Shown here one piece after another: positions 40,153 to 57,224 of a DNA stretch of 64,000 bases. The notes below the pieces were generated by a model that was given only the letters and a program-made list of their open reading frames with translations, was not told the origin of the DNA and did no database searches. The position numbers and the translations under genes were made by a program. Source of the stretch: Candidatus Woesebacteria bacterium. Lineage in GTDB: Bacteria > Patescibacteriota > Microgenomatia > UBA8517. The stretch is from NCBI GenBank assembly GCA_013374835.1, contig CP055307.1, positions 74,447 to 138,446 on the forward strand, written 5' to 3'. The stretch's first letter is position 1; the number at the start of each line of letters is the position of its first letter.

Positions 40153-41601
40153 ATGGTTTATTTTATTCTAATTCTTGGCTACTCGCTTAATCTTATTTTT
40201 ATAAGTATTTTTAAATACAACTATTCGTATGACGAAATCATAGTTACCGAAATAAGCAAACAGCCAATAAGCACTCTATTAAATACAATCAAAGCAGAGC
40301 CACACCCTCCCGGGTTTTATTTTTTATTAAAATTTCTCCCGGTAGATAATCCGACCGCGACAAAATTAATAATCACGTCAGCAAGCTTCATCCTTTCCAC
40401 AGCTACCATTTTCTTTCTACACAAAAAGGAATTAATCAATAAATTCAAGCTCAAACACGGGCTTACGCTTTTTTTCTCGTCTTTTACCTTTCTCTCCACA
40501 AGCACAGAGGTAAAACAAACAAGCCTTTCAGCACCCATACTTCTGCTTTTTCTCTCCACTTTGTTTTATACGGCTAATAAAAACAAAATAAGCCAGATAA
40601 ACATAATAACTATTAATATTAGTGTTCTACTTCTTCTGTCACTGGGCTACATCAACTATTTAATAGGACTCTTTACCCTAATTGCCATCTGTTTAATCAA
40701 AAAAAATAAATTATTAATTTACTCATCAATCTTTCAACTAATTATATTGCTTTTTTTTCTAAAACTATTTGCGCTGGATCAAATCATAATTAATACCCAT
40801 AGGTTCTCTTGGATAAACGAATTTTATTCAAACCCAATAAATTTATTAAGCACCCACATTTCAGGCTTCTATTCTCAACATCCCGCCCTGGATATTCCTC
40901 TAATCTTTTTTCTCCTGCTAATTTTTTTGGGAATCTACAAAAACAACACAAAAACACCCAAAGCATTCTACTATGCCCAAATTGTTGCTCTAATACTATT
41001 TCTTATTACAATAATTACAAAAACCTCTGTAAGAGTAAGGTATTCAACTCCCCTGCTTTTTACGCTTAGCACCCTGGCAGGCTGGGGACTAATAGCTCTA
41101 AACAACGCTTTCAAAACAAACTCGCTTTATAAACCGACAATTTCCCTTTTCTTTTGTCTGGGATTTTTAGGACATATCTACAACCAAACAACCATCCAAA
41201 AAAATAACCAAATAATAGTCAACGCTGTCAATTCCTTTCCCGAGAACAAAAAGGTAGCTCTCGCAATCGACAGAGAAATTTATCCCCTCGCTTTCAAATT
41301 AAAATTCTTCAAAAACAAAAAGAATTTAATTCCGGTAAATTTTTTTAACCCCGGTCTAATTGAAAACTCTCAAACAATTACCCAAAAGCATTTAACAAAT
41401 TATTCCTTACCCGGTCTCCCACTCAAAATTAAATATGAAAACTATCTATTTGTAGATATTCAAAGGCCGATTAAATCAAATAGCGAAAAGGATAAAATCA
41501 ATTTAATCCTCACCCTTAACAAATCCTGTAAACAATCAAACATTATTAATATCAATAATTCATTTACACTCTATTCTTTTGAAGACTGTCTTTCAAAATA
41601 A
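40153..41601 (+). CDS. GT-C fold glycosyltransferase (ArnT/PMT-like) embedded in the pilin array
   Basis: YDEIIVTEISKQP...AEPHPPGFYFLL matches the DE-x-Y...hPPL first-loop signature of GT39/GT83 enzymes. ~12 TM plus a C-terminal soluble domain. Confidence 0.5.
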   Translation: MVYFILILGYSLNLIFISIFKYNYSYDEIIVTEISKQPISTLLNTIKAEPHPPGFYFLLKFLPVDNPTATKLIITSASFILSTATIFFLHKKELINKFKLKHGLTLFFSSFTFLSTSTEVKQTSLSAPILLLFLSTLFYTANKNKISQINIITINISVLLLLSLGYINYLIGLFTLIAICLIKKNKLLIYSSIFQLIILLFFLKLFALDQIIINTHRFSWINEFYSNPINLLSTHISGFYSQHPALDIPLIFFLLLIFLGIYKNNTKTPKAFYYAQIVALILFLITIITKTSVRVRYSTPLLFTLSTLAGWGLIALNNAFKTNSLYKPTISLFFCLGFLGHIYNQTTIQKNNQIIVNAVNSFPENKKVALAIDREIYPLAFKLKFFKNKKNLIPVNFFNPGLIENSQTITQKHLTNYSLPGLPLKIKYENYLFVDIQRPIKSNSEKDKINLILTLNKSCKQSNIININNSFTLYSFEDCLSK

Positions 41602-41643
41602 CGAAAGCCTTGCCGAGATGTTTTCTCCAATATAAAATGAGTT

Positions 41644-41976
41644 ATGAACATGCTTACCCCATTTGTTTATGCAATAGATCCAAGCAACATCCAAGACGGA
41701 GATGTGCCAATACTAAGAGGCCTCGAAGACGTATTTGAATCTGTAATAAGCCTTGCTATTCCGCTTGCCGCCATTGTCCTTTTTGTTCTTCTTATCATAG
41801 GTGGATTCAAATACCTCACAGCCGGCTCAAACGCGGGCAAAGTCGAGGCAGCTCAAAAAACCATAACTTACGCAATTTTAGGCATGGTCCTTATTGCCCT
41901 AGCCTATTTGATATTAGAATTTATCGCCGCATTCACAGGAGCTACTTATCTACGCCAATTCAGAATAAGAATATAA
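41644..41976 (+). CDS. pilin-like protein, subfamily B
   Basis: LLIIGGFKYLTAGSNAGKVEAAQKTITYAILGMVLI. Confidence 0.5.
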   Translation: MNMLTPFVYAIDPSNIQDGDVPILRGLEDVFESVISLAIPLAAIVLFVLLIIGGFKYLTAGSNAGKVEAAQKTITYAILGMVLIALAYLILEFIAAFTGATYLRQFRIRI

Positions 41977-41994: not shown

Positions 41995-44900
41995 ATGAAA
42001 AAAAAGGCAATAAAATTTACCCTCATACAAGCCAGCGTATTCACTTTTTTAATTTTTCTCAGCAAATCTATATATGCACAAACCCCGGTGGACCTAAGAG
42101 ATTTCATTGCAGGACCCGACTTTGTTCCCCATTCTTTAAGCTCTGGAGAACAAATCAGCTTTTCTTCAGAAGGAGATTGTCACGCAATGGGCCAAGCCGT
42201 AAGGCAATACAAAAACGCAAACTACGAACAGTTCTGCATAGGAGCAGATGGTGTTTATAGACAAGAGGATACAAGCTGGGCAATTTCAATTGGAAACAGG
42301 CTCCAAAATGCACACTGTAAGGGCACTCTTGACAAAGCAATTATTACCTCAGACCCAGGATGCACCACCTATACCCCAGGCTCTCAAGTAACAACAGACG
42401 GAGCCTGGTGGGCCCCAGCCGGAATCGGCTCAATGACCACAGGACAATCCTATTCCTACATCACCCACAATCCATGGCAAATAGTAACAATAAACAACAA
42501 TATCCTCCAATCCGGAGGAGGTAAAATCTACTGTGAAATCGAAGAAAGCCCGTATTCAGATAGATATAAATCCCCAAACACCTGTGGATCCACCATCTCC
42601 GTCTCTCTTACCTACTACGACGCCGGTGAATACGAATTCTGCACCGGACTAAAAAACAACGAGCCAGTAATCGCCATGGGCGCAACCTCAGGCCCCGGCT
42701 CAGACGAAAAAATAATCTACATGAAAGGCTGGGGAATAGTGGGTTTCGAATCTCCATTTATGACAGTTGGGCTAATGGGAACGGACAACTATGGAAACAC
42801 AGCCGACCCCTCAGGCTGCACTACACCAGGAGCTTTTGGCCCTGGAGCCTCGGGTGTGCAGTGCGAAGATGAATTTTTCCCTGAATTTCACTCCCTGCGC
42901 CCATACCCTGCGTGTCCAATCCCCCCCGACATTATGGACACAAGCTTTCTCCTCTGCGGAAACGACCTTATAACCCAGGAAACCCTTGAAATAAGATACG
43001 GCGAAGATCTGCCCGATGGAATTTCACTAATTAACTGCACGGAAGAAGAAGAAAATTTAATTTGCAATTACAAAATTACAAATAGAACCATACCAATAAG
43101 AGTAGATCTCTCAGAAGCAGACCTCCCCATCATGGGACTTACCGAAGACCCCTTCTCAACCGAAGGTGATGAACCCTGGCCACACAAAAGAATCCCGGAC
43201 TCAGTTACCCCAGCCCAAAGAATGAACGAATACGTCAGCTGGTACTTAAACGGCACAATAGCAAGAGCCGAAGATCCGTTGCTTGCAGTAACCAACGATT
43301 ATCCCGAAAAACCAGACAATATAAGCGATCCTAAATTCGAAAAAATATTCCGCGACACGAGATTATTAATAAACTTCTCAGGCCCCCTAAGAAAACTTTT
43401 ACCCTGGAGAATCCAAGTAAGAGAAAGAGAGAAACAAATTTTTGAAGCATCCGGCTTTGGAGGCCCCGACGTCGCCGGAAACATCCGCCACAACCAAATT
43501 GTCGGCTGCACGTATGGGTTATCTATACCTAACTTTTGGGACATATTCAACATAGACGAAATCGGAGGAATACCTGGTCCATGCTATGAACCCAAAAAAG
43601 AAAACGACTTTATAATTCCTGATTTATTCCAAAGACAAATACACCGACTTTCCGACTGGCTCGAGGGAGGAGTAAACGAGGAGCTGGACAAATGGAACCG
43701 CCTTCCTCCGTACGACGAAGACATCGGCACCAAATACGAAAATTTTCAAGAATACTGGAAAGAATACAGGCGTTGGCGCGGACAAAGCTGCACACCAAGT
43801 TTGGATCTTGGTGATATACCACTCGATCAAATCCCTGGCATAGGATCAATTTTAGGATCTCTCTTAGACATCGTACCCAACCTTTATCTTTGCTACGACA
43901 ATCCATTAAAATTCAATTATTGGTCAAGCCTCTTTAGCTATATCCCCTTCTCATCAACTGAAGATAGAACCGGATATGCAGAAGGCCACCTGGACACTGC
44001 TCTTACGCAACAACCGCCAAGCGACGCAAATATCACAGACATTAATTTTACACCAAATCCGGGCACAATCCTGCCGGACGACGGAAAAATGAGGTTTCTC
44101 TATTTCCCCCACATGCAGGAAAGCGCAGAACTAGGATATCTGCTTCAGCAAACCTTCCTTACAAAAGGAGAAGGTGGCTTCTCAAATATCAACGAACAAG
44201 GTTACTACAATACAGAGCGCTGTGAATACCTAGACACCAGAAAAAACCCGGGTGACGATCTATACGGCGGCGATTTCGATCAAGAAGGTCTTCCATGGAA
44301 CCAGCCCGTAAACGACGAACGGACAATAGACGGAAACATAACATATTCAGGCACCTTCCAGTGCTCTTTCTATCTTGCAGAGCCGGTTTGCGATGGCATC
44401 GGCTACCCCGGCCAAGTCCACTGTAACACGGACGAGTGTAGACCATATGTTTGTACAGAATCCGGAAACTGGGAACCAGCTTGGGACACGATAACAGGAG
44501 GAGTAGGACAATACCCCTGTAGTGGAACAGCAGGAAATTGCACCTCCTCAAGCACATTCTCGCCACCGGATCCGGGTGTTTGTACAATAAACATAAGCAC
44601 TGCAACATCAATCTATATAGGCACACCAAAGGCAGAAGAAGTCTGGGATAGACTAGTAAACGGAAGCCAGTCGGTCTTCAGAAGAATTTACCCAAAAGTA
44701 GGAGCGGAAAAGCCTGTCGAAGAAATAAAAGACATCCCGGCAGAAGCCAAGGCAAGCTACTCCTCAGAAGATGGAAACGTCCAAGTCTTTGCAGGAAATC
44801 CAGCTGCAGCAAGGCCAGGCTCAAACGCAAAAATATTCTTCCCCCATATCGGCTCAATCTACGACTACTTTCTAAAAGGCATTCAAAAAGCCCTCAGACC

Positions 44901-45543
44901 AAAAGACATTCAAACCATCCAATCAGGCCCGTCATCCACCCCGCCTCCGCCTCAAAACACAGACTGCCCCATAAACTGCAACCAAGACGTACCAGATTCA
45001 GAAATTCCAACAGCCTATTTAGGAACATTCAAACAAAACATAATTAGGCTTGCAAACGACTTGTACGCAGGCACTGGTAGAAACTTCGCAAAAGAATGCT
45101 ACAACGACGTAGTAAAAAGATCGCTAAACGCGGGCTATAACCCAGCGTTTGTTATCACAATATGGCTTGCAGAAAGCGGGGCAAGCAACTACAACCAAGC
45201 TTGTACTACCCAAGACTTTGGGATAAACAGGCCAGAAATGGCGGCAGATTTTAACGAACAAATAAGATGGTTCTTTAATCTTACAAACATCTGGAACACC
45301 ACATATCCGGAATGCATAGACTGTAATATCTCAACAGGAGAATGTACCAATGGCTATACATATATGGAAAACTGGACACACCTTTTCAAATCTGAAGACC
45401 CAATAAACGCCACAGGAGAATGCGTTCCAGATCCGCCCTCACAAAGCAGGCTTGCAGACTACCAAAACATTTGGAATTGGGTTGCGCCCGCATGCCCATT
45501 TCCTCAAACGCCGTTTCACAACACATGTCCAAATATAAATTAA
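41995..45543 (+). CDS. large secreted Cys-rich protein (1182 aa) with C-terminal lysozyme-like / lytic transglycosylase-like region
   Basis: Signal peptide. ~45 Cys across the length. C-terminal block AGYNPAFVITIWLAESGASNYNQACTTQDFGINR resembles the SLT E-S-G catalytic motif. Confidence 0.45.
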   Translation: MKKKAIKFTLIQASVFTFLIFLSKSIYAQTPVDLRDFIAGPDFVPHSLSSGEQISFSSEGDCHAMGQAVRQYKNANYEQFCIGADGVYRQEDTSWAISIGNRLQNAHCKGTLDKAIITSDPGCTTYTPGSQVTTDGAWWAPAGIGSMTTGQSYSYITHNPWQIVTINNNILQSGGGKIYCEIEESPYSDRYKSPNTCGSTISVSLTYYDAGEYEFCTGLKNNEPVIAMGATSGPGSDEKIIYMKGWGIVGFESPFMTVGLMGTDNYGNTADPSGCTTPGAFGPGASGVQCEDEFFPEFHSLRPYPACPIPPDIMDTSFLLCGNDLITQETLEIRYGEDLPDGISLINCTEEEENLICNYKITNRTIPIRVDLSEADLPIMGLTEDPFSTEGDEPWPHKRIPDSVTPAQRMNEYVSWYLNGTIARAEDPLLAVTNDYPEKPDNISDPKFEKIFRDTRLLINFSGPLRKLLPWRIQVREREKQIFEASGFGGPDVAGNIRHNQIVGCTYGLSIPNFWDIFNIDEIGGIPGPCYEPKKENDFIIPDLFQRQIHRLSDWLEGGVNEELDKWNRLPPYDEDIGTKYENFQEYWKEYRRWRGQSCTPSLDLGDIPLDQIPGIGSILGSLLDIVPNLYLCYDNPLKFNYWSSLFSYIPFSSTEDRTGYAEGHLDTALTQQPPSDANITDINFTPNPGTILPDDGKMRFLYFPHMQESAELGYLLQQTFLTKGEGGFSNINEQGYYNTERCEYLDTRKNPGDDLYGGDFDQEGLPWNQPVNDERTIDGNITYSGTFQCSFYLAEPVCDGIGYPGQVHCNTDECRPYVCTESGNWEPAWDTITGGVGQYPCSGTAGNCTSSSTFSPPDPGVCTINISTATSIYIGTPKAEEVWDRLVNGSQSVFRRIYPKVGAEKPVEEIKDIPAEAKASYSSEDGNVQVFAGNPAAARPGSNAKIFFPHIGSIYDYFLKGIQKALRPKDIQTIQSGPSSTPPPPQNTDCPINCNQDVPDSEIPTAYLGTFKQNIIRLANDLYAGTGRNFAKECYNDVVKRSLNAGYNPAFVITIWLAESGASNYNQACTTQDFGINRPEMAADFNEQIRWFFNLTNIWNTTYPECIDCNISTGECTNGYTYMENWTHLFKSEDPINATGECVPDPPSQSRLADYQNIWNWVAPACPFPQTPFHNTCPNIN

Positions 45544-45574: not shown

Positions 45575-47188
45575 ATGATATTATTAAAAATGATAAAAAT
45601 TAAAAAGAAAAACATGATCAAACGCCTGCTCATATTGTTTCTTTTAGTCAATTTACTATTCTTGTCTATTTTTGCCGCTCCTGCCAAGGCTCAATGGTAC
45701 AATCAATCCTTTGGCCAATGGTATGTACAAGTTTATGATAGCGAAAACCCGGCAGAAATATTCGGAGAGCGCTACACCGCCGCCCAGGTTCAATGGGTAA
45801 CATACGGATTTATAGCTCTTTTAATACACACAATTACAGAAAGACTTCCCATTAATCCGGAAAATATAGTAAATTTCATTACAACAGGAGACATTTCAGA
45901 ACTTTCTTCAAATAGCACTGCTCCACAACCAATCGCCCAAAACAAGGAGCAAAACGGCAAAAATCTTCTGCAGGAAATATTTAGAGACAAACCCCTTTCG
46001 GGAATAACTTATACCAAAGAAGCTATAAAAAACATCAAACTCATTCCTGAAGCTAAAGCCCAAACTACAGGTTTTGGATTTCAAACACTCGGACCAATAA
46101 GAGGATTGTGGAGAATCTCAAGAAACATTGCCTACACGCTTTTTGTCCTTGTAACAATTGTCTTGTCGTTTATGATAATGTTTCGCGTAAAAATCTCACC
46201 ACAAGCGGTAATTACGGTCCAATCAGCACTCCCAAGAATATTTCTTGCACTCATATTAGTCACATTTTCATATCCTATCGCTGGCTTTTTAATCGATATT
46301 ATGTACGTAACAATAGGTCTTATAAGCTTGCTTGTTGGCGGAACAAGCAATGCTCTTGATCTCTTCAATTTATTAACCAAAGGCCTTGATCCTCTAAAAA
46401 TTGGTTATGGCGCAGGTATATTGGGCATATTTTTTTACCTTCTTTATATATATATTATCTCTGCCCTCGGATTTTTTGCATACGGCATCGCTGATCTTAA
46501 TTCAGAACAAATCGGCGGTGGCGCAGGAGGTATCGGACTTGGACTTTTAATGCTTGTTTTTATATTTATATTTGTATTTGCAGCACTTTTTACATTTTTC
46601 AAAATAGTAATTCTTCTTTTCAAAACATTTACCACTATCTTAATTCTTACCATTATCGCCCCAATTCAATTAACGCTCGGGGTAGTAATGCCTGAACTTG
46701 GATTTGGTAATTGGCTTAAAAACTTCGTTAAAAACCTTGCCGTTTTCCCTACTTTGGGGTTGTTGTTACTACTGGCACTAATCTTTGCCTCATCAGCAGC
46801 AATTGCATTTATCAACCTCGACATTCCTGAAATAGGAATCCCAGAATTAAAAGCTCTGTCTTTCAACCCGGCAAGCTACAATCAATTCGAGGGTCAAGGA
46901 TGGCCGCCTTTCCTCGATCTAAACGGAGCCGCTCTCAACTTCGCCTTTGTAATAGTAAGTGTAGTAATTCTTGCAATGGCAGCAAAAGTAGATCAACTAA
47001 TAAACGCCCTCATGACAGGCCGGGTCTTTGGCTACGGCACAGCTCTATCCGAATTTACAGGAATAGCACCTCCAGAAGCAGGCCAAGCCGGGTGGATTAA
47101 TAAACAAATTAGTCAATTAAGACAAGCTAGAAAAGCTTCAGGACAAAGAGGTAGCGGGCTCGCAGGCAGCGCACAAGGCGGTGGATAA
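45575..47188 (+). CDS. VirB6/TrbL-like polytopic membrane protein
   Basis: Signal-like N-terminus and a ~150-aa periplasmic region, then at least 6 TM helices, then a Gly/Ser-rich tail (GSGLAGSAQGGG). Alternative start at 45614. Confidence 0.5.
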   Translation: MILLKMIKIKKKNMIKRLLILFLLVNLLFLSIFAAPAKAQWYNQSFGQWYVQVYDSENPAEIFGERYTAAQVQWVTYGFIALLIHTITERLPINPENIVNFITTGDISELSSNSTAPQPIAQNKEQNGKNLLQEIFRDKPLSGITYTKEAIKNIKLIPEAKAQTTGFGFQTLGPIRGLWRISRNIAYTLFVLVTIVLSFMIMFRVKISPQAVITVQSALPRIFLALILVTFSYPIAGFLIDIMYVTIGLISLLVGGTSNALDLFNLLTKGLDPLKIGYGAGILGIFFYLLYIYIISALGFFAYGIADLNSEQIGGGAGGIGLGLLMLVFIFIFVFAALFTFFKIVILLFKTFTTILILTIIAPIQLTLGVVMPELGFGNWLKNFVKNLAVFPTLGLLLLLALIFASSAAIAFINLDIPEIGIPELKALSFNPASYNQFEGQGWPPFLDLNGAALNFAFVIVSVVILAMAAKVDQLINALMTGRVFGYGTALSEFTGIAPPEAGQAGWINKQISQLRQARKASGQRGSGLAGSAQGGG

Positions 47189-47199
47189 AATTTAAAAAA

Positions 47200-49302
47200 T
47201 CAAATAGGTAAATTGTCTATAACCATAACAACCTTATCCATCAAATAAGCAGCTACTCTTTGATAAGGGTTCCTCTTCAACTTTCTGGCCCCTATTTCAT
47301 TAGCCTCATCTACGAACTTCCTAAAATGCGCCGCATTCTCACCAGACGGATATTTAACCCTTAATCTATAAGAACTCTTAAACGCAGTCCTTGCAGCTAC
47401 AACATAAACCCCTTTTACAATATTTTCTCGATATTTTCTATCTACTTCCAATTCACTAAAAGCGTCCGCCAACCCCCTCCAAGTTTTTATTCGACCTCTC
47501 ACTATAGCCTCATTAATCGTTTTTGCTCTGTCAATAGCGCCAAAAATATATTTAGAAAACGGCGTTTCGGAAACCTCATTAAAATCTAAAGTCTCAAGTT
47601 TCATATTCGGCCTAATATGTAAAATTTTTCTACCGTTTCCTAATAAAACATCTCGAAAAGTTATCTCCTTTTTTCCTTCCTTTTTGGCTCCCATATACGA
47701 AAACGCATCCTTGTATAATTCTTTTGGCAAAACATTTGACTTTTCACCCCTAAAAAGACGACCAGAAATCACATGCCGCTTTTTCTTTCTTAGTACGCTT
47801 GCCGACCAAGAACCAAATGGCACACTCCATTCTGACTCCCCATCTTTGGCTTTTTGCTCTAACCTCTCTTGGGGGTGCATCGAAATCCTTATTGGCAAAG
47901 ACATTAACCTAAAATCCATAGGAGGAATGCGGCTATTATTGTTTCGTTTATACCTCGAATCTTCATATTCAACTACATTGCCCTGTGTAAAGAAATTCCA
48001 AGCAGCTCGAGCTACATCGTCAGCATTTATTTCAACATCATCTCCGTTTTCGATTTTCTCCCGAACAACCCCATGTCTTGATAGCCACAAAGCCACATTG
48101 GAAACTAAAGTATCAAGGTCACTAAGTTCTTTAAAATCAAAAACCGTCCCACCGTTCTTAAACTTGCCATAAACAGCATCGTTCCTTTGAGTTTCAGTTG
48201 AGTTCAAATCCCTATCAAAAAATTCATTCAAATCAACCCCATCAACAACAATGGCTGTATATAAAGAAACGGCGTGCATAAAACCCGGAACTCTCCACAC
48301 CTGCCTACCCTGTACTTCATCGCATCCAAACAAAAATGAAATTTCATCTTTTGTTAATTCACCAATTGGATTGCTTGGATATAAATCATCAAAACTAAAT
48401 GTATTTACCTTGTGATAAAGAGCACGTGCTAATTTATATCTTATTTCCCACCATTTCTTTGTATCACCCTCAAGATCCTTCACCATAATATTTGGATTTA
48501 CACCTTCTACTGGAACTTTGGCGTCTTTTTCCAATCTCCTAAAAGAATTTCTAAAATCCTCCGGGGTTTCAAGAGTTTCTTTTCTTTCTTCCCACTGTCT
48601 GCGCTCCTGTCGCACTCTTTCCTCTTCTATCATTCTCACCCTCCTCTGTTCAGCAGCAATCTCTTGCAACAGCGCCGCCTCCACACCTCTCACATCCCGA
48701 CTAGAAGGTCTTGCAACTTCAGCGGACATATCACCAGTTAAACTATTAATGTTATATCTCTCTTCAAACCAACCTGTTGGAACAAAATTAAAATCCTCAA
48801 ATCTGTCAAGCGCATTAGCTTTCATTATTGGACCAAATTCTTTACTTACCCGCTTTCGCTCCATATCCAGTTTATTCACCAAACTCTGAACAGCAGCATC
48901 AAAAATCCCCACATATTTCTCTCCTTTTTCTTTGTCTAAAGCTTCTTCAAACTCTTGAGCAACAGAGATTATTTCCCGAAAATATTCGCCCCAATCAACC
49001 TTTCCACTATTATTAAAAATTTCTGTTTTTTCTACAATCTTAGATGCAAAGTCTTCAAAACCAGGAGCTGATTCTAAATACTTTCCCAACAATTCTTGAC
49101 CTTTTTTAATCCAACTGTTTAATTCACTCAATTTATGTGGGTCTAGAGAACGATTTTCTTTAATTTCTTTCTTGTAAGTTTCAATGTCTCGAATTATTTC
49201 CTTAGCAGTTACCTCATGCGCACCCTCTCCCCGCTCAGGAGCTCCACCCATACTCAAATCGTCTGGTCTGAAATGAATTTCAGGACTCATAGTATCATCC
49301 AT
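47200..49302 (-). CDS. large hypothetical cytoplasmic protein (700 aa) encoded antisense to the surrounding locus
   Basis: No TM and no signal peptide. Charged and coiled-coil-rich N-terminal half. No motif recognised. Confidence 0.45.
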   Translation of the reverse strand: MDDTMSPEIHFRPDDLSMGGAPERGEGAHEVTAKEIIRDIETYKKEIKENRSLDPHKLSELNSWIKKGQELLGKYLESAPGFEDFASKIVEKTEIFNNSGKVDWGEYFREIISVAQEFEEALDKEKGEKYVGIFDAAVQSLVNKLDMERKRVSKEFGPIMKANALDRFEDFNFVPTGWFEERYNINSLTGDMSAEVARPSSRDVRGVEAALLQEIAAEQRRVRMIEEERVRQERRQWEERKETLETPEDFRNSFRRLEKDAKVPVEGVNPNIMVKDLEGDTKKWWEIRYKLARALYHKVNTFSFDDLYPSNPIGELTKDEISFLFGCDEVQGRQVWRVPGFMHAVSLYTAIVVDGVDLNEFFDRDLNSTETQRNDAVYGKFKNGGTVFDFKELSDLDTLVSNVALWLSRHGVVREKIENGDDVEINADDVARAAWNFFTQGNVVEYEDSRYKRNNNSRIPPMDFRLMSLPIRISMHPQERLEQKAKDGESEWSVPFGSWSASVLRKKKRHVISGRLFRGEKSNVLPKELYKDAFSYMGAKKEGKKEITFRDVLLGNGRKILHIRPNMKLETLDFNEVSETPFSKYIFGAIDRAKTINEAIVRGRIKTWRGLADAFSELEVDRKYRENIVKGVYVVAARTAFKSSYRLRVKYPSGENAAHFRKFVDEANEIGARKLKRNPYQRVAAYLMDKVVMVIDNLPI

Positions 49303-49438: not shown

Positions 49439-50416
49439 ATGCACGATCAATTTTCAACATTCGAACAGCATCCGGTGCCACAAAACATCAGTTCATACCA
49501 GTTTAGGCTCATAGGAGACATGACCATCAAGCAATTCTTTCAGCTTGCAGGCGGGGCTTTAATTGCGCTTCTTTTTTACGCCTCCCCTTTCCCGGGTTTT
49601 ATCAAATGGCCGCTTATCATCTTTTTTGCACTGGCAGGAGCAGCCTTTGCCTTCCTTCCTCTTGAAGAACGTCCACTAGAAGAATGGGTAAAAGCATTTT
49701 TCCGATCCGTTTATTCACCTACAATCTATGTCTGGCAAAAAACACAAACCCCCCCCATTATTTTCGCCCAACAAGTAGCTCCAGTAGCAACCGAAGAAAA
49801 CGCACAAGAATCGGGTCAGCCACAAGACCCCGCCCAATCAAACCTTGATAAAGCAGAAAAAAAATTCTTTGACAAATTCACAAATCTTTTTTCAATATCC
49901 CCAGCAAGCCCACCCAAACAAACGGTCTCAATCCCACCCCAGCCAGTCAGCAACCCACCACAGCCAGAAACAACAACCGTTTCCATTAATGCACACCAAG
50001 GGTCAAAACCCAGCTTTAATATAAGCGTAAACGAAAACGAAAAAATAGCGACAAAAAACGCACCACAAACACTCATTGCACAACAAATCCAAAAAGCCCA
50101 AGCCGCACAATTTAGCCCGGAGTCAGCACCGCCCACCCCCCCAACACAGCCCAATATAGTTGTTGGCCAAACAATAAGCACCGAAGGAAAAATTATAGAA
50201 GGTGTAATACTCGAAATAAAAGACGCTCAAGGCCGTCCAGTACGCGCCCTCAAAAGCAACAAAGCAGGACACTTCCTAATAGTCACACCACTAAATAACG
50301 GCAAATATCAAATTACAGCCGAAAAGGAAGGCTTTGCATTCGACCCGATTGAAATAGAGGCAAACGGACAAATCATTCAACCTATCGCCATAAAAGCAAG
50401 GTCTCAACCAAACTAA
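49439..50416 (+). CDS. VirB3/PrgI-like small membrane module fused to a Pro/Gln-rich linker and a carboxypeptidase-regulatory-like beta-sandwich domain
   Basis: N-terminal ~100 aa with two TM helices directly upstream of VirB4. C-terminal GKIIEGVILEIKDAQGRPVRALKSNKAGHFLI...YQITAEKEGF, a transthyretin-like fold. Confidence 0.4.
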   Translation: MHDQFSTFEQHPVPQNISSYQFRLIGDMTIKQFFQLAGGALIALLFYASPFPGFIKWPLIIFFALAGAAFAFLPLEERPLEEWVKAFFRSVYSPTIYVWQKTQTPPIIFAQQVAPVATEENAQESGQPQDPAQSNLDKAEKKFFDKFTNLFSISPASPPKQTVSIPPQPVSNPPQPETTTVSINAHQGSKPSFNISVNENEKIATKNAPQTLIAQQIQKAQAAQFSPESAPPTPPTQPNIVVGQTISTEGKIIEGVILEIKDAQGRPVRALKSNKAGHFLIVTPLNNGKYQITAEKEGFAFDPIEIEANGQIIQPIAIKARSQPN

Positions 50417-50417
50417 A

Positions 50418-51119
50418 ATGCAAAATCCCATCAAAAAAATACCGCTCCTAAACATTCCGGACAAGCCCCTTGTCGGCACAACTCAAGATCACATTCCCGT
50501 TGCTGAAATTGAAAACGACATGGTTCTTCTCAAAGACGGTGGTGCGGCAATAATTCTAGAAACCACATCCCTTAACTTCGGACTTCTGTCTGAACGCGAA
50601 CAAGAAGCAGTAGTTGCAGCTTTTGCGGCACTCATCAATAGCCTTAGTTTTCCAATCCAGATTTTGGTAAGAACCGAAAAAAAAGACGTATCAAAATATC
50701 TTAAATCAATAGAAGAACATCTTCCAAATGTAAAAAGCGAAAAACTAAAAGGATTAATGATCGGCTATAAAAATTTCATCTCAGAAACCATAAAGAAAAA
50801 AAATGTGCTTGGAAAAAGGTTTTTTATAGTAATTCCCTTCTCTCCATTTGAATTAGGCGTTAATGCCAAATCGCTGTTGGATTTCAAAAAAAAGAAAAGG
50901 ACAATACCATACTCCAAGGAATACGTTATCAAAAAAATCCAAACCTCTCTCTACCCCAAAAGAGATCATTTAATCAGACAGGGCACCCGCCTAGGTTTAA
51001 AAATGCGACAACTAAACAACGAAGAAATAATTAAACTTTACTACAATATCTATAATCCCGATTTCGAAGCCATACAAGTAAAAGAAAAGGAGGAGGAAAT
51101 CAAAAATGAATCTATTTAA
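50418..51119 (+). CDS. VirB4/TraE-type ATPase, N-terminal domain encoded as a separate ORF
   Basis: IPVAEIENDMVLLKDGGAAIILETTSLNFGLLSEREQEAVVAAFAALINSLSFPIQILVRT matches the N-terminus of Gram-positive VirB4 homologs. 14-nt overlap with the next ORF. Confidence 0.55.
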   Translation: MQNPIKKIPLLNIPDKPLVGTTQDHIPVAEIENDMVLLKDGGAAIILETTSLNFGLLSEREQEAVVAAFAALINSLSFPIQILVRTEKKDVSKYLKSIEEHLPNVKSEKLKGLMIGYKNFISETIKKKNVLGKRFFIVIPFSPFELGVNAKSLLDFKKKKRTIPYSKEYVIKKIQTSLYPKRDHLIRQGTRLGLKMRQLNNEEIIKLYYNIYNPDFEAIQVKEKEEEIKNESI

Positions 51120-53016
51120 AGCCAGAGACAACATAAATCAAAAACACACAAATACCCAAATGCTAAATCCCAAAATTCCCGCCCCAACAAATCAAGGTCA
51201 AGAGGTTCGAAAGCAAAAATTTGCCGATCCCATAGCAGCGCTCAAAGAAATGCCGCTTCTTGACGTCCTTGCTCCAAACAAAATAGAGCTTGATTTCGAT
51301 TATATAGAAATAGACGGAGTATATTTCAGAACACTTTTTGTTGCAGGATACCCGCGCTTTGTCGTCCCCGGATGGATGGAGCCGATCATAAATTTCGACC
51401 ACAGCCTTGATATTTCATTCTTTATTTATCCTGTCGAGGGAAGAACAATCCTCGATGAATTAAGAAGAAAAATCACAGAAATGGAGGCTGAAATTGCAAC
51501 AGACATCCAAAGAGGAAAAATAATAAACCCAGCAACCGAAGCAAAACTGGAAGACGCCAAAATGCTTCAAGAACAGCTCGTTAGAGGAGCCGAGCGCTTC
51601 TTCGAATATTCTTTCTATATTACAATCCCGGCAACTTCTCTCGAAGCCTTAAATAGCATCACAAAAAGAGTAGAATCCACCTTATCCTCTCTTTTAATCG
51701 TTGCAAAACACGCTGCCCTTGATCACGAAAGAGGTTTTCTCTCAACAGCGCCCTTTGGCCGCGATATGCTTTCAATAACAAGAAACATGGACACAACATC
51801 TCTTGCCACCACCTTTCCGTTTACAACAGCCGAGCTAAGTAGCGACGAAGGAATTTTATACGGAATAAACTCTCAAAACGAGTCGTTTATTATATTCGAC
51901 CGATTCACTCTTGAAAATTCAAACATGACCGTTTTTGCTACTTCAGGCGCAGGAAAAAGCTTTTTCGTAAAACTAGAATCTCTTCGCTCTTTGATGTTCG
52001 GCACAGAAATAATAGTAATAGATCCGGAAAACGAATATCAAACACTCTGTGAAGCCGTAGGAGGAGAGTATATTAAATTCTCATACTCAAGCCCCTCAAA
52101 AATAAATCCGTTTGATCTCGCTCAAATATACGAAAAAGGCGAAAACCAGCTAAATCTCAAGCTTCTGTCTCTTCATTCATTGTTCAAAATAATAATGGGT
52201 GAATTAAACGCATCCCAAGAAGCCCTTCTTGATAGAGCTCTTATAAACGCCTACCGCGCAAAAGGCATTACTCCCGATCCCGAAACACAAACCAAAGAAC
52301 CGCCTCTTATTGAAGACCTCTATAAAGCTCTTATTGGAATGGAAACCTCTGAAGCCCTAGACCTCGCCGCACGCATTGAAAAATTTGTAAGAGGAAGCTA
52401 CGCGGGCGTCTTTGACAAACACACAAACATAGATATAAAAAATCCCTTCACCGTCTTTTCAATTAGAGATATTGAAGACAGCATCCGCCCAATATCAATG
52501 TTTATAATTCTTGACTTCATCTGGACAAAAATAAGACGCAACATAAAAAAACGCATCCTTGTTGTTGACGAGGCTTGGCACATGATGCGCTATCCTGATA
52601 CTGCTCAATTTCTCTGGTCTATTGTCAAAAGAGCCCGTAAATACTATCTTGGCCTGACAACAATCACCCAAGATGTTGAAGATTTTCTAGCCCAAGACAT
52701 TGGCAAAGCAGTAGTCACAAACTCAGCTCTAAGGCTCCTTCTCAAACAAAGCCCGGCTGCAATAGACAAGGTTTCGGAAACATTCTACTTATCACAGGGC
52801 GAAAAACAGCTCCTTCTCGGTGCAAATATAGGCGAAGGTATCCTCTTCGCAGGCCCCCACCATGCACCAATAAGAATTGTCGCATCAAACGAAGAGTATC
52901 GATTAATAACAACTAATCCAAAAGACCTTGAGAAAAATCCAGCCTCACCCGAGCTTACACCGGTCGAGTCTGCAAAAATCATAGGCTATTCAAAAGAAGA
53001 AGGAAATATTGTCTAA
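51106..53016 (+). CDS. VirB4/TraE/CagE-type T4SS ATPase (core and ATPase domains)
   Basis: Walker A FATSGAGKSFF. VIDPENEY. Walker B ILVVDEAWHMM. Perfect SD AAGGAGGAGG 8 nt upstream, inside the preceding ORF. Confidence 0.75.
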   Translation: MNLFKARDNINQKHTNTQMLNPKIPAPTNQGQEVRKQKFADPIAALKEMPLLDVLAPNKIELDFDYIEIDGVYFRTLFVAGYPRFVVPGWMEPIINFDHSLDISFFIYPVEGRTILDELRRKITEMEAEIATDIQRGKIINPATEAKLEDAKMLQEQLVRGAERFFEYSFYITIPATSLEALNSITKRVESTLSSLLIVAKHAALDHERGFLSTAPFGRDMLSITRNMDTTSLATTFPFTTAELSSDEGILYGINSQNESFIIFDRFTLENSNMTVFATSGAGKSFFVKLESLRSLMFGTEIIVIDPENEYQTLCEAVGGEYIKFSYSSPSKINPFDLAQIYEKGENQLNLKLLSLHSLFKIIMGELNASQEALLDRALINAYRAKGITPDPETQTKEPPLIEDLYKALIGMETSEALDLAARIEKFVRGSYAGVFDKHTNIDIKNPFTVFSIRDIEDSIRPISMFIILDFIWTKIRRNIKKRILVVDEAWHMMRYPDTAQFLWSIVKRARKYYLGLTTITQDVEDFLAQDIGKAVVTNSALRLLLKQSPAAIDKVSETFYLSQGEKQLLLGANIGEGILFAGPHHAPIRIVASNEEYRLITTNPKDLEKNPASPELTPVESAKIIGYSKEEGNIV

Positions 53017-53017
53017 C

Positions 53018-55381
53018 ATGGCATTTAAAATTCCAGAAAGAAAAGAAGGATTAATAAGGCTTAGGAACCAACTGCTCAAGGCAGCAGAATCCGCATCGAA
53101 AAGCAGCGCTCTTCCTATAGAACTGACAGAGCTTTTAAACAAAGCTTGGCTTATCACCAACAGCATAGATATCAATCCTGAAATTTTAAACAAACTTCCT
53201 CAATCTGCTCAAGTCGACCTTGCTATAAAGATGTCTAAAATAGCTGCCTCTCAACTTAACATTATGATAACAACCCCCTCGCTCTTTGAAATGCTGTTAG
53301 ACGAAAATAGAAAAAAAACAACATCCCCGGACCTCCAATCAGATCTAAAAGAAGCTTTAAAAAATCTCGAAAAAATCATTAAAGACCCTCAAAAATATGG
53401 TATTGACCCAAAAGAAGCACTAACCATTGCTAGCAAACTTCTTAATAACCCGGATCTTGACCCAAAAGATAAAGAAAATCTTGACGAGTTAATAAACGAG
53501 GTTCTGGAGGCAACAAAAACAGTTCAAAATATCGAAGATATCAGTTTTATTCTTTCCCCCGAGCAAAAACAAATAGAAGAAAAAATAAATATTTTTACTA
53601 ACGCCACCGATCAAGGAAAAAACGTACAAAACGAAAAACTGGAACTCGCACAAGTAGCTGGTTTAAGCTCAATACTGCTAAGCCAAAAACAAAATCTCAT
53701 TTCAAAAGCCAAAGTCTTCATAAAAACAACCTATAACTTAATGTACCAAAGACTGATTTCAAAAGGAGGTGCTGCTGCAGCCATCGCTTTTCTCGCCGAT
53801 AAAGCAATCAAAACTGTTGCAAGAGTTGCAAGCATGGCAAAAAGAGCCACTCAAGGAAATATTGGAGACTTAGCGCTACTTAGTGTTTTTTTTGCCGGTT
53901 TTTTAATAGGCGGTCCAATCGGCGCAGCACTCATGCTTTTTGCAATAAGTCCAAGGTTCAGAAAAATAGTAATAACAGGCCTTTTTATATCTCTCACACT
54001 TATCCTAACAGAAATGCTTATTGCTCTTTTGGTTATCATTATTTCTATCTCAATAATTCTTTTTATAATCAATTCAGGAGCCTATATAGTTCCCCAAGGA
54101 TCACCGCTTCAAGGAGAAGAATTAACCCAAGGTATAGTAGCATCGGGAACCTGTCCCCTAGTTTCCAGTTGTCCTAAAATCGACTCAGGCTCCTATAATC
54201 CGGAAAACGAAACGGGTCACGGAAGCAACTCTTATTGGGGTTCTGCAACAAATGCCTGTACTTATTCCATCCCCATTGACCCAATGGGGGGTTGTCTTGG
54301 CCCCGATCCTACAAACGGAAGAAATTTCTGCTCTTCTGCTCCAACAAGATGCTCTGTTTACGGATACGCTGCAGACGTGGTTGATTGCAATGGGGTTTAT
54401 GCAGACGTAGCTCTCCCCTATCTTTGTGATCCTGGAAGCGAAACGTGTAGCCCCTTAACTTGGCGCTTTATTGACGGATGGTACAACTGCCAAGGAGCAA
54501 GCGTCCCAAATAAAGCATCCTGCACAAGAGAAGGGTGGGGATATGGTGCAATCTTTGAGGCAATAGGAAACGGACACATTTGGCGCATCTACCTTAACCA
54601 CATTAGCCAACTTCCCTCGGGCAAAACTTATCAATCAGGCTCTGTAATCGCCCAGCTCACCAACGAACTCATTCCAGGACATCTCCATGTCGAGCTTAAC
54701 ATCGATGGTTTTGCAGTTAAACCGGACTTTCTCTGCTCGGGAGAAGGCTCTGGAATAACACCTCCCGTAAATACAGACCTTGAAGGTTGGTACGTCACAG
54801 TAAATCCGGAAAATCTTATAGCATCAAACCCGCTTTCAGAAAACGAGGTTGGTATTAATTCCTGTACTTGGATGAGCTCAAAAGGTCTATCTGCTGCCAT
54901 TAATGCCAATTTTTACTTAAACGCAAACACTCCAATAGGCCACGCAGGTTATAATGGCAATTTTACAAATTACCCACCAGATGAGGGTTTTTCAGCCTAC
55001 AACTTTAAAACTCTCGTTGTGACAGAGAGCAACCAAGCTCAAATTGTAAAACACTCAAACTTGCCGGACAATCTTACAGGCCAAGGTTATAAACTTGCTG
55101 TTACAGGAGTTGCATATAATAACATTACAGGTTCAGGCCCCAAAACAGTCGTTGGAATCAAAAATAATCGCGTCTATTTAATAATATTAAGAAGCGCAAC
55201 GGCAGTTCAAGTACAACAGTTTATGGAATCTGTATTGGGAGTAGACGACGGATTCTTTCTTGATAGCGGCGCATCAACAACTCTATGTAACTCAAACGGC
55301 ATAGTCTTTTCCGGCCAGAATCCACCAAGAAATATTCCCTCGCACATAGGAATTACAAGCGGTAGTTTTATCAGGTTATAA
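53018..55381 (+). CDS. membrane-anchored cell-wall hydrolase: M23 peptidase-like plus phosphodiester-glycosidase (NAGPA/DUF2233)-like domains
   Basis: Long Lys/Glu-rich cytoplasmic N-terminus, TM helices (~300-360), GHIWRIYLNH...GHLHVELN (M23 HxH), then C-terminal ...FFLDSGASTTL, like the LDGGGSS block of phosphodiester glycosidases. Start taken at ATG 53018; the track uses TTG 53009. Confidence 0.5.
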   Translation: MAFKIPERKEGLIRLRNQLLKAAESASKSSALPIELTELLNKAWLITNSIDINPEILNKLPQSAQVDLAIKMSKIAASQLNIMITTPSLFEMLLDENRKKTTSPDLQSDLKEALKNLEKIIKDPQKYGIDPKEALTIASKLLNNPDLDPKDKENLDELINEVLEATKTVQNIEDISFILSPEQKQIEEKINIFTNATDQGKNVQNEKLELAQVAGLSSILLSQKQNLISKAKVFIKTTYNLMYQRLISKGGAAAAIAFLADKAIKTVARVASMAKRATQGNIGDLALLSVFFAGFLIGGPIGAALMLFAISPRFRKIVITGLFISLTLILTEMLIALLVIIISISIILFIINSGAYIVPQGSPLQGEELTQGIVASGTCPLVSSCPKIDSGSYNPENETGHGSNSYWGSATNACTYSIPIDPMGGCLGPDPTNGRNFCSSAPTRCSVYGYAADVVDCNGVYADVALPYLCDPGSETCSPLTWRFIDGWYNCQGASVPNKASCTREGWGYGAIFEAIGNGHIWRIYLNHISQLPSGKTYQSGSVIAQLTNELIPGHLHVELNIDGFAVKPDFLCSGEGSGITPPVNTDLEGWYVTVNPENLIASNPLSENEVGINSCTWMSSKGLSAAINANFYLNANTPIGHAGYNGNFTNYPPDEGFSAYNFKTLVVTESNQAQIVKHSNLPDNLTGQGYKLAVTGVAYNNITGSGPKTVVGIKNNRVYLIILRSATAVQVQQFMESVLGVDDGFFLDSGASTTLCNSNGIVFSGQNPPRNIPSHIGITSGSFIRL

Positions 55382-55389: not shown

Positions 55390-55896
55390 ATGAAAAATTT
55401 TATTTTACAGATAATTCAAAAGCGCGCTAAACTGCTTGTATTCCTAATATTTCTAATTTCTTTGGTTTTACTAATTACCCTACTATCAAATCGTCCAAAA
55501 GAATCTCCTACAACAAGCGCTCCCCCCACTTCAGCGTCTATTTCAATTGAATACGGCGACCTCCCAATGCCTCAAATATTTCCTAAATCCGGCAAATTAA
55601 ACTGGGGAGAAACAAAAAACGCAATAACACTTAAATTCGATAAAACAATCAACAAATCAAGCGTTCAAATAAGCTCTCAGCCTCCAAAAAATTTCAAAAT
55701 ATCCACGCTTCCTGATGATCTCGGAAGGATTATTATCACTCCCCTAACACCATGGGAAACTGGAAAAACTTATAAAATTACGATTTTTAAAGGCATAAAA
55801 ACCGCCTTGCAAGAACCTTTAATGCTTAAAGAGGATATAAATCTCGAGTATGAAATACTTTCTCCAACAAGGCCAAACTACGACAGACCAGCCTAA
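55390..55896 (+). CDS. small bitopic membrane protein with an Ig-like extracytoplasmic domain
   Basis: N-terminal TM LLVFLIFLISLVLLITLL, then a Ser/Thr/Pro linker. Last gene of the locus. Confidence 0.35.
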   Translation: MKNFILQIIQKRAKLLVFLIFLISLVLLITLLSNRPKESPTTSAPPTSASISIEYGDLPMPQIFPKSGKLNWGETKNAITLKFDKTINKSSVQISSQPPKNFKISTLPDDLGRIIITPLTPWETGKTYKITIFKGIKTALQEPLMLKEDINLEYEILSPTRPNYDRPA

Positions 55897-55904: not shown

Positions 55905-57008
55905 TTACTCTTGAGTCTTTACAGGCATAATAATATGATAAAAATTGTTGCTTTGCCCATCCCTAAAAACCCCGGGAGAAATAGAATCAGTAAATTCCAT
56001 AATAACCTCATCCCCATCAACCACATTCAAAAAATCCTCAATAAAACGATAATTATAAGTAATTTCAACTTCCCCACCCTCAACTTTCGCATCTATTTTA
56101 ATATTTTGGCTTCCCGACCGTGAACTCTCGGAAGAAAGCCCAATTCCCTCATCTAAAACTTTCAATTTAACAGTATTAGCACTATCACGAGCAAAAACAG
56201 AAGCAAGCTTAATAGCTCTTAACAAATCTTCTTTTGAAACAATTGCTTTTACGTTGTAACTTTTAGGGACTATTTTTTCAAAATCAGGGAAATCGCCTTC
56301 AATCAACCTACTGGAAAAGATATTTCCATCAAAACCAAACAACACCTGGTTATCACCACTTCTGTACTCAAAATCAAGCATTTCTTCAACGTCTCTAAAA
56401 CGGGAAATTTCAGCCAAAATGTTCCTAGGAACTATAAATTTACATGGCTTTACTTTTTCTCCCAATAAAAACTTGACAGATGACAACCTAAATCCATCAG
56501 ATGAAACAAGAAGAAGACTATCTCCTTGAAAAACAAACAAAACCCCCGTTAAAATAGGTCTGGTTTCGTCTCGAGACACACTAAAAAGCACTTTACCCAA
56601 CATATCTGAAAATTTCTCAAAATTAATTTTTTTAACGTCCCTGCCGATTTTTTCTGGAATACTAGGAAAATCTGAAGTGTTCATTCCTGCTAAATTTGCA
56701 TAAAAAGCATTCGAGGTTACTAAAAGCGTTTCATTCCTAGATTCCAAGGCTACCGTCTCATAAGCTAAATTTAAAAGTATTTCAGAAAAATTTCTGGCAG
56801 GTACTGCAATATCCCCTTCTTTACTTATTTTTGCAGCAATAGATCCGCAAAAAGAATTTTCAAGATTAGTTGCCATAACATAAATTTTATTTTTGGATGT
56901 TTTAATAACGCTATTTTCAAGTATCGGAAGCTGCGACCTTGTTGAGGTAAATCTAGTAGCAATACTCAAAATTTTTGAAAGTTCATTTCTTAAAACAATC
57001 GCCTTCAT
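55905..57008 (-). CDS. dnaN: DNA polymerase III beta sliding clamp DnaN
   Basis: 367 aa. Three-domain clamp pattern. Position immediately downstream of dnaA. Confidence 0.85.
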   Translation of the reverse strand: MKAIVLRNELSKILSIATRFTSTRSQLPILENSVIKTSKNKIYVMATNLENSFCGSIAAKISKEGDIAVPARNFSEILLNLAYETVALESRNETLLVTSNAFYANLAGMNTSDFPSIPEKIGRDVKKINFEKFSDMLGKVLFSVSRDETRPILTGVLFVFQGDSLLLVSSDGFRLSSVKFLLGEKVKPCKFIVPRNILAEISRFRDVEEMLDFEYRSGDNQVLFGFDGNIFSSRLIEGDFPDFEKIVPKSYNVKAIVSKEDLLRAIKLASVFARDSANTVKLKVLDEGIGLSSESSRSGSQNIKIDAKVEGGEVEITYNYRFIEDFLNVVDGDEVIMEFTDSISPGVFRDGQSNNFYHIIMPVKTQE

Positions 57009-57224
57009 TACTAAAAATTATATTTAAGTTTTATTTTTTTTCAATTCTTAATATTAATTAGTAATAGTAGTAGTAGTTATTGTTGATATGTTAATTTATC
57101 TTGCCTATTTAAGTTAAAAATCCATTGTTAATATTAAGTATGAAAAAATGTAAATAAAAATGTGAATAAAATTATTATTTTTGTGGATAAGTTGATAAAT
57201 AAATATTTTATCAATAACTTATCC
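57009..57224. promoter_or_regulatory. candidate oriC / DNA-unwinding element (dnaA-dnaN intergenic)
   Basis: Very AT-rich. (TAG)x4 repeat at 57065-57076. Perfect DnaA box TTATCCACA (revcomp at 57182-57190). One-mismatch boxes TTATCCTCA at 57219-57227 and 57250-57258. Confidence 0.6.

Follow-up and report, generated by a model that had tools for sequence, protein, structure and literature searches.

In the window, by which we mean the whole stretch of 64,000 nucleotides of Candidatus Woesebacteria bacterium DNA analysed here (assembly GCA_013374835.1, contig CP055307.1, positions 74,447 to 138,446 of the forward strand), the gene at positions 40153–41601 interrupts an array of genes for VirB2-like pilins of a type IV secretion system (T4SS) and, judging from sequence and model comparisons, encodes a true GT-C glycosyltransferase from a family that has no model yet. 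The enzyme was placed among GT-C proteins because three independent lines agree, namely the fold, the reach of profile searches and the profile–profile alignment. In our opinion, its product may well be an active inverting GT-C enzyme acting on an exposed component of the T4SS, and the probability of this reading is estimated as roughly 0.5. The data described below show the fold, the superfamily homology, the conserved residues of catalytic type, the topology in silico and the conserved gene position; the donor, the activity and the acceptor are inferred, with the established biochemistry of GT-C enzymes as the basis.

The open reading frame is intact, begins with ATG and codes for a product of 482 amino acid residues; the start was taken as fixed because the stop codon upstream is only three in-frame codons away. 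It is not a chance reading frame, because a protein 98% identical to its product is present in several public assemblies and a comparison of the family profile with 1.84 billion representatives gave approximately 109 relatives (cluster representatives) at E ≤ 1e-10. The AlphaFold2 model, calculated from an 11-sequence alignment, comprises approximately 11 transmembrane helices, a first loop that is helical and, at the C-terminus, an alpha/beta domain formed by residues 361–482 (predicted local distance difference test score, pLDDT, 84.6; predicted template modelling score, pTM, 0.86). Short loops bearing Lys or Arg alternate on one, the 'in', side, and for this reason an N-in/C-out topology is predicted in silico. 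The conservation of individual residues was scored over an alignment of 74 full-length relatives sharing 18–41% identity with the query. The main elements of the gene are the following.

40153–41601, plus strand: predicted GT-C glycosyltransferase gene of a PMT_2/ArnT-like uncharacterised family (open reading frame, AlphaFold2, Foldseek and hhalign)
40222–40236, plus strand: Y24-S-Y-D27-E28, acidic DE motif opening the first extracytoplasmic loop; putative catalytic and acceptor-binding site
40297–40320, plus strand: E49-P-H51-P-P-G-F-Y56, the EPHPPGFY motif in loop 1; putative lipid-phosphate or metal site
41038–41043, plus strand: R296-Y297, basic/aromatic pair at the outer end of transmembrane helix 10, at least 90% conserved
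41233–41598, plus strand: C-terminal extracytoplasmic alpha/beta domain, residues 361–482, with the Cys pair C459 and C479

Searches with the single sequence gave no match in Pfam (E ≤ 1), NCBIfam or the PDB sequences, and two family profiles, A1 and A2, gave no match among the PDB sequences either. The link to known families came from a profile search of 1.8 billion proteins and from profile–profile alignment; a second profile-based homolog search enlarged the family by one protein only. When the model was compared with PDB structures by Foldseek, nine matches were found at E < 0.01, and all of them were GT-C proteins (ArnT, ALG12, AftA, ALG9, PglB and AftB) with ArnT 5ezm at the top (E 3e-5, template modelling score 0.51). 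DPY19, AftD and Pmt were among the weaker matches, and transporters appeared only at E > 0.05 with a template modelling score of about 0.1. In the profile search, a clear gap beneath the family was followed by a second tier of proteins at E 1e-10 to 1e-6, seven of the ten tested being above the PMT_2 gathering score. An hhalign comparison of the 74-member family with 37 of these second-tier, PMT_2-type proteins gave a probability of 99.9% (E 2.9e-31, 385 columns) in a register that sets YxYDE on WxDE, EPHPPGFY on DvHPPLYY and R296-Y297 on the RY of the tier. The hidden Markov model (HMM) of this tier matches the product of 40153–41601 directly (E 1.4e-29), and the nearest PDB sequences to the tier itself were TMEM260 (6e-10), ArnT (0.008) and AglB (0.012).

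The gathering threshold of PMT_2 (PF13231) was not reached by the enzyme, which has no Pfam match at E ≤ 1, and weak PMT_2 matches were present in only two of 11 close relatives (the best at 7.9e-4). Because the family falls below the PMT_2 threshold yet shows 99.9% profile–profile homology, it appears by sequence to be a sister of PMT_2/ArnT-type enzymes in the same clan rather than a part of PMT_2. In UniRef the automatic name 'Glycosyltransferase RgtA/B/C/D-like domain-containing protein' is given to one relative, and the others are 'hypothetical' or unnamed. The family is so far almost confined to Patescibacteria. The original prediction, made from the letters of the window, had described a 482-residue polytopic protein with a YDE...HPP first-loop signature and had likened it to ArnT/PMT enzymes. 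Both points held well: the open reading frame, its approximately 11 transmembrane helices and the motif kept in 74 relatives agree with the description, and the likeness is borne out by the nine of nine GT-C structures and the 99.9% alignment with PMT_2-type proteins. No unrelated polytopic family came out as the best remote match, and on alignment with the PMT_2-type DE the Asp/Glu loop is retained.

The two loop-1 motifs, YSYDE and EPHPPGFY, come directly after the first transmembrane helix, and their conservation in the alignment is far above chance. D27 and C459 are invariant in the 74 relatives, while E28, E49, P50, H51, P52, Y56, K121, Q210, R217, W220, R296, Y297 and C479 are at least 90% conserved. 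The predicted topology places all the conserved polar residues (D27, E28, E49, H51, K121, Q210, R217, W220, R296 and Y297), as well as the Cys pair, outside the membrane. The DE motif has its equivalents in D55/E56 of ArnT and D77/E78 of Pmt1, which make up the active site in loop 1, and the phosphate of the lipid carrier is contacted by K85 and Y345 of ArnT (PMC7801869). By a two-step alignment, the first step of which is strong and the second weak (E 0.008), H51 would correspond to K85 and Y297 to Y345. In the second step, ArnT 5ezm is aligned with the PMT_2 tier so that HPP stands on KPP and the Tyr of RY on a Tyr, which are K85 and Y345 given a three-residue offset of the construct. An equivalent of the phosphate-binding R270 of ArnT was not placed in the alignments, and R217 is a possible one. 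The C-terminal domain, modelled alone by AlphaFold2, reached a pLDDT of 86.6; it had no significant structural match, the best ones (E 0.065) being generic Rossmann-like folds that give no clue to the acceptor.

Following these homologies, a sugar carried on polyprenyl (undecaprenyl) phosphate would be synthesised in the cytoplasm and then flipped to the other side of the membrane. The phosphate of the carrier would then be held by H51 together with R296/Y297, and D27/E28, which open the first outer loop, would position and activate a hydroxyl group of the acceptor, the sugar being transferred on the outward-facing side of the membrane. The acceptor is most likely an exposed part of the T4SS because the enzyme is a lineage-conserved accessory inside, or at the head of, a VirB2-like array. 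The genes needed to follow this argument are given here.

35942–40068, plus strand: nine VirB2-like T4SS pilin paralogs upstream of the glycosyltransferase gene (PF18895, pilin HMM, two-helix transmembrane hairpin topology, positional orthology)
39697–40068, plus strand: pil8, the pilin directly upstream of the glycosyltransferase gene (T4SS_pilin E 6e-11); its Gly-rich tail has Thr-Ile-Ser at the C-terminus
41644–41976, plus strand: pil9, the last pilin of the array (T4SS_pilin E 2e-9), always paired with the giant protein
41995–45543, plus strand: giant secreted protein of 1182 residues with a VirB1-like C-terminus and an S/T/P-rich linker, SGPSSTPPPPQ
34199–35884, minus strand: SpoIID-domain protein (Pfam SpoIID E 1.9e-14), bordering the pilin array on the left, with synteny kept in every locus that has an array

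An HMM built from eight array members finds ten paralogs at E 1e-13 to 1e-41, several of them above the Pfam T4SS_pilin gathering score. They belong to PF18895, with weak similarity to TrbC/VirB2, and each of them is a two-helix hairpin in which both the basic loop and the exposed termini are short. In the first three, a signal peptide and a Cys-rich ectodomain are present as well. The array appears to be an old ordered set of ten without recent amplification, because pilin n of the window is most similar to pilin n or n+1 elsewhere (L001, L007, L008, L026 and L028; the related lineages are numbered in this way). The glycosyltransferase gene and the pilin genes share one strand, with 84 and 42 bp between the former and its neighbours. 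It does interrupt the array, as had been proposed, with nine pilin genes upstream and one downstream, and the pilins are VirB2-like T4SS pilins (PF18895), not type IV pilins.

The genomic contexts of the family members were gathered from genomes and metagenomes and scored with the pilin HMM and by tblastn with the proteins of the window locus, and the counts of positions refer to 17 distinct lineages with informative flanks. In 12 of these 17 lineages the gene lies inside a T4SS pilin locus, so the proposed conservation of the enzyme with pilin arrays in relatives was found as expected. It stands within the array in nine of them (the window together with UBA1430, L001, L007, L008, L021, L026, L027, L028 and L031), in most cases precisely in the interval bounded by the orthologs of pilins 8 and 9; the copy in L031 occupies the same slot in inverted orientation. 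In three others (L003, L023 and L033) it occupies the head of the array, adjacent to SpoIID, whose protein is only 33–45% identical to that of the window. Loci L003 and L014, of this head type, are from metagenome-assembled genomes labelled Saccharibacteria. Orthologs of pil9 occupy the same position in L001, L007, L008, L026, L028 and L031, and the giant protein is always next. According to tblastn, the latter is syntenic in L001, L007, L008 and L026, and a 1160-residue gene product in the same place in L031 was assigned by position only. The identity of the glycosyltransferases across the T4SS-linked loci is mostly 22–41%, the range for the 12 lineages being about 22–45%. It may be concluded that the gene is a conserved but dispensable accessory of the T4SS locus and not its core component.

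The leading acceptor candidates would be the short tails, rich in Gly, Ser and Thr, at the N- or C-terminus of the pilins embedded in the membrane, above all those of the pilin just upstream. The giant VirB1-like protein, with its S/T/P-rich linker, would be the next candidate. The array pilins in the membrane are predicted to expose short termini rich in Gly, Ser, Thr, Asn and Pro. The C-terminal tail of pil8 (39697–40068), at approximately 40018–40065, ends in NFTIPGLGSGGGGGTIS, and the pil8 orthologs have a Gly-rich tail with Ser or Thr at the C-terminus or no more than two residues from it in seven of seven loci (GGGGGTIS, PGIS, IGGS, GGTN, GGGS, GGGS and GGGGGS). A sequon of the N-x-S/T type (NFT) in the pil8 tail was considered as a modification site and rejected, since the orthologs have NLN or NLD and the enzyme is not STT3-like. 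T4SS surface components taken together have about an even chance of containing the acceptor, whereas the pilin tails as such are a possible but rather doubtful choice. It is likewise a tentative suggestion that the protein could be the first dedicated glycosyltransferase for VirB2-type pilins, adding a sugar to the exposed tails of at least one of the ten paralogs before assembly.

Several observations weigh against an acceptor in the T4SS. Five of the 17 lineages (P0009/L005, L012, L015, L020 and L025) have no pilins in the available flanks; the copies in P0009/L005 and L012 are near ribosomal protein S1, and L015 and L020 offer one flank only. The gene has been repeatedly lost and is dispensable for the apparatus, because damaged copies, truncated or decayed, occur in four loci: L021 (1428–2826, frameshift), L025 (9938–11446, broken), L026 (2875–3378, a remnant of 167 residues) and L027 (6728–8334, decayed). 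The slot between pilins 8 and 9 may simply tolerate insertions, as is indicated by the AbiEii toxin-like gene in L008 (7853–8572, minus strand). Neither a GT2 polyprenyl-phosphate sugar synthase nor a GtrA-type flippase was found among the window open reading frames scanned. A hairpin and a TATAAT box before the gene (40087–40144) hint at its partly independent transcription, possibly as a leaderless transcript. A pilin acceptor is a candidate deduced from gene position. Finally, according to a structural survey, no glycosylation has been described for bacterial conjugative-type (VirB2-type) pili; diffuse density only was noted there, in two archaeal homologues (PMC9905601).

The cargo of the pilin 8/9 slot is variable in other respects. 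Genes of Acyl_transf_3 are found there in L001 (11612–12616, minus strand), L007 (14543–15580, minus strand) and L026 (5035–6078, minus strand), their products being 55–82% mutually identical; enzymes of this type typically modify glycans by O-acetylation. The slot of L021 contains a different polytopic gene with a product of 483 residues. Besides, a second unannotated polytopic family (450–535 residues, N-terminal motif WIDPDFGWHYRLG...DHEW, mutual identity 27–32%, no Pfam match) is found repeatedly in related T4SS loci, four in all: in the slot in L007 and L026 and next to SpoIID in L003 and L023. The window encodes no homolog of it. Its members are located as follows.

L007, 11544–13130: second polytopic family
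L026, 3384–4991: second polytopic family
L023, 4956–6308, minus strand: second polytopic family
L003, 6586–8052, minus strand: second polytopic family

The gene beside the glycosyltransferase in L007, coding for 528 residues, was considered as a paralog of the latter and rejected, as the hhalign probability was only 3%. The original suggestion of a candidate pilin glycosyltransferase is therefore kept in part: the link with the array is conserved, while some members are outside pilin loci and the slot also accommodates Acyl_transf_3 and AbiEii.

The sequence before the gene and its composition provided some additional data. In the intergenic region 40069–40152 there are two hairpins, ctggttttggtttaaaccag and ccctcgtttagttaaacggggg, and a perfect TATAAT is present at 40139–40144, 8 nt 5' of the ATG, without a Shine–Dalgarno sequence. 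A promoter scan across the array gave counts near the shuffled expectation, and a terminator scan across the array showed that the gene is not flanked by a plus-strand terminator. The GC content of the gene is 0.325, and that of its third codon positions (GC3) is 0.35 in comparison with 0.33–0.44 in the neighbours. A foreign origin was considered as the cause of the low GC and rejected, since GC3 is like that of the neighbours and the deficit is confined to codon positions 1 and 2; the low GC reflects amino acid composition. The runs A8 at 40699 and T8 at 40751 are within the gene; phase variation was also considered and rejected, as such runs are unremarkable in a gene with 32% GC.

The closest genome is that of Ca. 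Woesebacteria bacterium UBA1430 from the Microgenomates group of Patescibacteria. The glycosyltransferase is 98% identical to its UBA1430 (L009/L011) counterpart, against 86–95% for the products of flanking genes. Special constraint as an explanation was rejected, because the whole 3.7-kb block 38240–41976, comprising six pilin genes and the glycosyltransferase gene, is of low divergence (synonymous divergence, dS, 0–0.04 against UBA1430 and 0.15–0.4 in the flanks), and the ratio of non-synonymous to synonymous divergence of the gene is an unremarkable 0.39. This block was probably recombined between strains recently. The pilin at 37092–37847 (59% amino acid identity) and a protein of 700 residues at 47200–49302, minus strand (45–57%), are hypervariable in comparison with UBA1430.

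The locus is a chromosomal, origin-proximal Patescibacteria T4SS with VirB4, PrgI/VirB3 and a VirB2-like array near dnaA. Further genes of this system and other relevant genes of the window are listed below.

45575–47188, plus strand: polytopic membrane protein of 537 residues in the VirB6 position, assigned by position and by synteny conserved across related loci only (no Pfam match)
49439–50416, plus strand: PrgI/VirB3-like protein (Pfam PrgI E 5.8e-8)
50418–51119, plus strand: TraC-like protein (TraC-like match in the L009 ortholog)
51106–53016, plus strand: VirB4-like ATPase (P-loop_TraG E 7.7e-33, AAA_10)
53009–55381, plus strand: protein of 790 residues with a C-terminal NAGPA phosphodiester-glycosidase domain (E 1.9e-10), its gene overlapping that of the VirB4-like ATPase
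55390–55896: small Big_5 protein, after the NAGPA gene
55905–58592: dnaN and dnaA
234–1634, plus strand: VirD4/TrwB-like coupling protein (TrwB_AAD_bind, TraG-D_C), approximately 50 kb from the VirB4 cluster
18915–20075, minus strand: LytR_cpsA_psr (LCP) wall-polymer ligase
13795–14217, minus strand: half-size EamA-family membrane protein of 140 residues, for which the role of an ArnE/F-type lipid-linked sugar flippase is a speculation
60718–61947, plus strand: Wzy_C/O-antigen-ligase-family protein of 409 residues (PF04932 E 1.2e-15)
5522–6994, plus strand: distant GT-C superfamily relative, PMT_2-like (PMT_2 E 6.3e-5, 23.7 bits against a cut-off of 26.1)

The SpoIID gene is accompanied upstream of the array, on the opposite strand, by genes of bPH_2 and DUF5657 proteins. 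The L001 ortholog of the giant protein has a weak SLT_3 match. The Wzy_C gene adjoins those of YidC (59426–60241) and a KhpB/Jag-like protein (60248–60721), and an HNH endonuclease gene (4760–5266, minus strand) is just upstream of 5522–6994. The product of the latter had been called a second GT-C paralog. As a distant superfamily relative it is supported by hhalign with PMT_2-type profiles (96.6% over 108 columns), but it is not a close paralog, as BLASTP found no significant similarity between it and the enzyme at 40153.

Among other explanations, it is quite possible, if somewhat less probable than an acceptor in the T4SS, that an enzyme of the same GT-C kind decorates a glycopolymer or lipid of the envelope (a teichoic-acid-like polymer, a peptidoglycan-linked glycan or a glycolipid), like YfhO, GtrC, ArnT and RgtA–D. 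In that case its place in the T4SS locus would be due to local remodelling of the wall around the machine or to mere co-inheritance. This explanation agrees with the abundance of wall-glycan enzymes in the locus (SpoIID, the NAGPA glycosidase in the operon and the SLT_3-like end of the giant protein), with the LCP ligase at 18915–20075 and with the Acyl_transf_3 neighbours in relatives, which are typical of glycan O-acetylation. Relatives outside pilin loci adjoin other GT-C genes, namely a PMT_2 gene in L025, where the glycosyltransferase gene itself is a pseudogene, and a PIG-V-like one in L005. Moreover, one member has the automatic name 'RgtA/B/C/D-like', and the nearest solved fold, ArnT, has a lipid acceptor. 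However, the slot between two specific pilins is kept, even inverted, at glycosyltransferase identities of 26–41% (62% for the decayed copy of L027), and such specificity exceeds the general clustering of wall enzymes. TMEM260, which among solved proteins is closest in sequence to the bridging PMT_2 tier, is a protein O-mannosyltransferase, and this likewise speaks against an envelope acceptor.

It is improbable that the gene has no functional link with the locus and is a passenger in an insertion-tolerant slot or codes for a degenerate non-catalytic membrane protein. The variable cargo of the slot (AbiEii, Acyl_transf_3 and other polytopic genes), the four truncated or decayed relatives and the possible own promoter with the upstream hairpin are consistent with this idea, whereas residues of catalytic type show little or no variation over the 74 sequences, most loci have an intact gene, the GC3 of the window copy matches that of the neighbours without a sign of recent foreign origin, and the linkage is kept in two configurations across deep divergence.

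Oligosaccharyltransferases of the PglL/TfpO type glycosylate pilins, and TfpO modifies the C-terminal Ser of the pilin of P. aeruginosa 1244, which resembles the Ser/Thr-bearing Gly-rich tail of pil8. A mechanism of this type, with en bloc transfer from undecaprenyl pyrophosphate to the pilin, is very improbable and is contradicted by the family assignment: adjacency to pilin genes is the only point in its favour, while no Wzy_C (PF04932) signal was found in the enzyme at E ≤ 1, no structure of the O-antigen-ligase type was present in the top 50 fold matches, the DE...HPP loop is an ArnT/PMT signature, and the real Wzy_C protein of the window is encoded elsewhere, at 60718–61947. The analogy with PglL/TfpO drawn in the original prediction thus pointed to a wrong family, that of Wzy_C proteins using undecaprenyl pyrophosphate-linked oligosaccharide donors, and the apt analogue is TfpW.

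TfpW of P. aeruginosa Pa5196 is a GT-C enzyme that adds D-arabinofuranose to a type IV pilin and is encoded beside the gene of that pilin; its loop 1 and large C-terminal domain are periplasmic (bioRxiv 10.1101/2020.04.19.049825). Likened to it by description, the enzyme of the window has pilin genes next to its own gene, here on both sides and kept in relatives, and it may modify these pilins. TfpW may be regarded as the best functional analogue for the reading with a pilin acceptor. In contrast to the window enzyme, whose neighbours are VirB2-like PF18895 T4SS pilins, TfpW acts on a type IVa pilin (PilA) and needs donor genes of the DprE1/DprE2 type, and no DprE-type match was seen among the window open reading frames scanned.

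ArnT (GT83) and other PMT_2 enzymes, including RgtA–D of Rhizobium, share with the window protein the GT-C fold, ArnT 5ezm being the best structural match, the DE after the first transmembrane helix, the HPP or KPP later in loop 1, a Tyr that may stand at the position of ArnT Y345 and a small outer C-terminal domain; a monosaccharide donor on polyprenyl phosphate is presumed for both. Unlike them, the window enzyme has approximately 11 helices instead of 13, no PMT_2 match at E ≤ 1 and a C-terminal domain that carries a conserved Cys pair and gave no significant structural match; its host is a monoderm without lipid A, and its gene is in a T4SS locus. Protein O-mannosyltransferases transfer sugar to Ser/Thr residues in flexible segments. 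The DE motif in loop 1 is common to the window enzyme and to PMT/GT39, TMEM260 and TMTC proteins (D77/E78 in Pmt1), but the former has neither MIR nor TPR domains, and its family profile has no direct match among PDB sequences.

T4SS of Patescibacteria with arrays of VirB2-like pilins, MPF-FATA-like and chromosomal near dnaA/dnaN, were described by Quinonero-Coronel et al. in 2025 (PMC12102498), whose survey includes 441 VirB2 arrays, and the window locus matches this description. In contrast to that survey, where the interrupting non-pilin gene was left unidentified, here it is assigned to GT-C. No glycosyltransferase is mentioned in these loci by the same survey (PMC12102498), by the T4SS review (PMC12857230) or by the paper of Wang et al. 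on Southlakia genetics published in 2023.

The T4SS of Patescibacteria, including a pilin cluster, is essential for epibiotic growth in one species tested (PMC10633639, PMC12857230). The gene that interrupts the array in Woesebacteria and their relatives has now been identified, by the comparisons given above, as a conserved GT-C of an unmodelled family. This leads to the testable idea that the T4SS surface structure or the surrounding wall is glycosylated. If a wall polymer is the acceptor, this would be a more ordinary enzyme of surface glycans at an unusual address. If an acceptor in the T4SS is correct, Patescibacteria would build a sugar-decorated T4SS pilus, and variation of the glycan through gain, loss or decay of the glycosyltransferase and through O-acetylation by Acyl_transf_3 in relatives could tune recognition or evasion of host cells in the epibiotic lifestyle. 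Glycosylation of the pilins themselves, if true, would represent a new kind of pilin modification and offer a way to approach host specificity in a very large group of uncultured bacteria.

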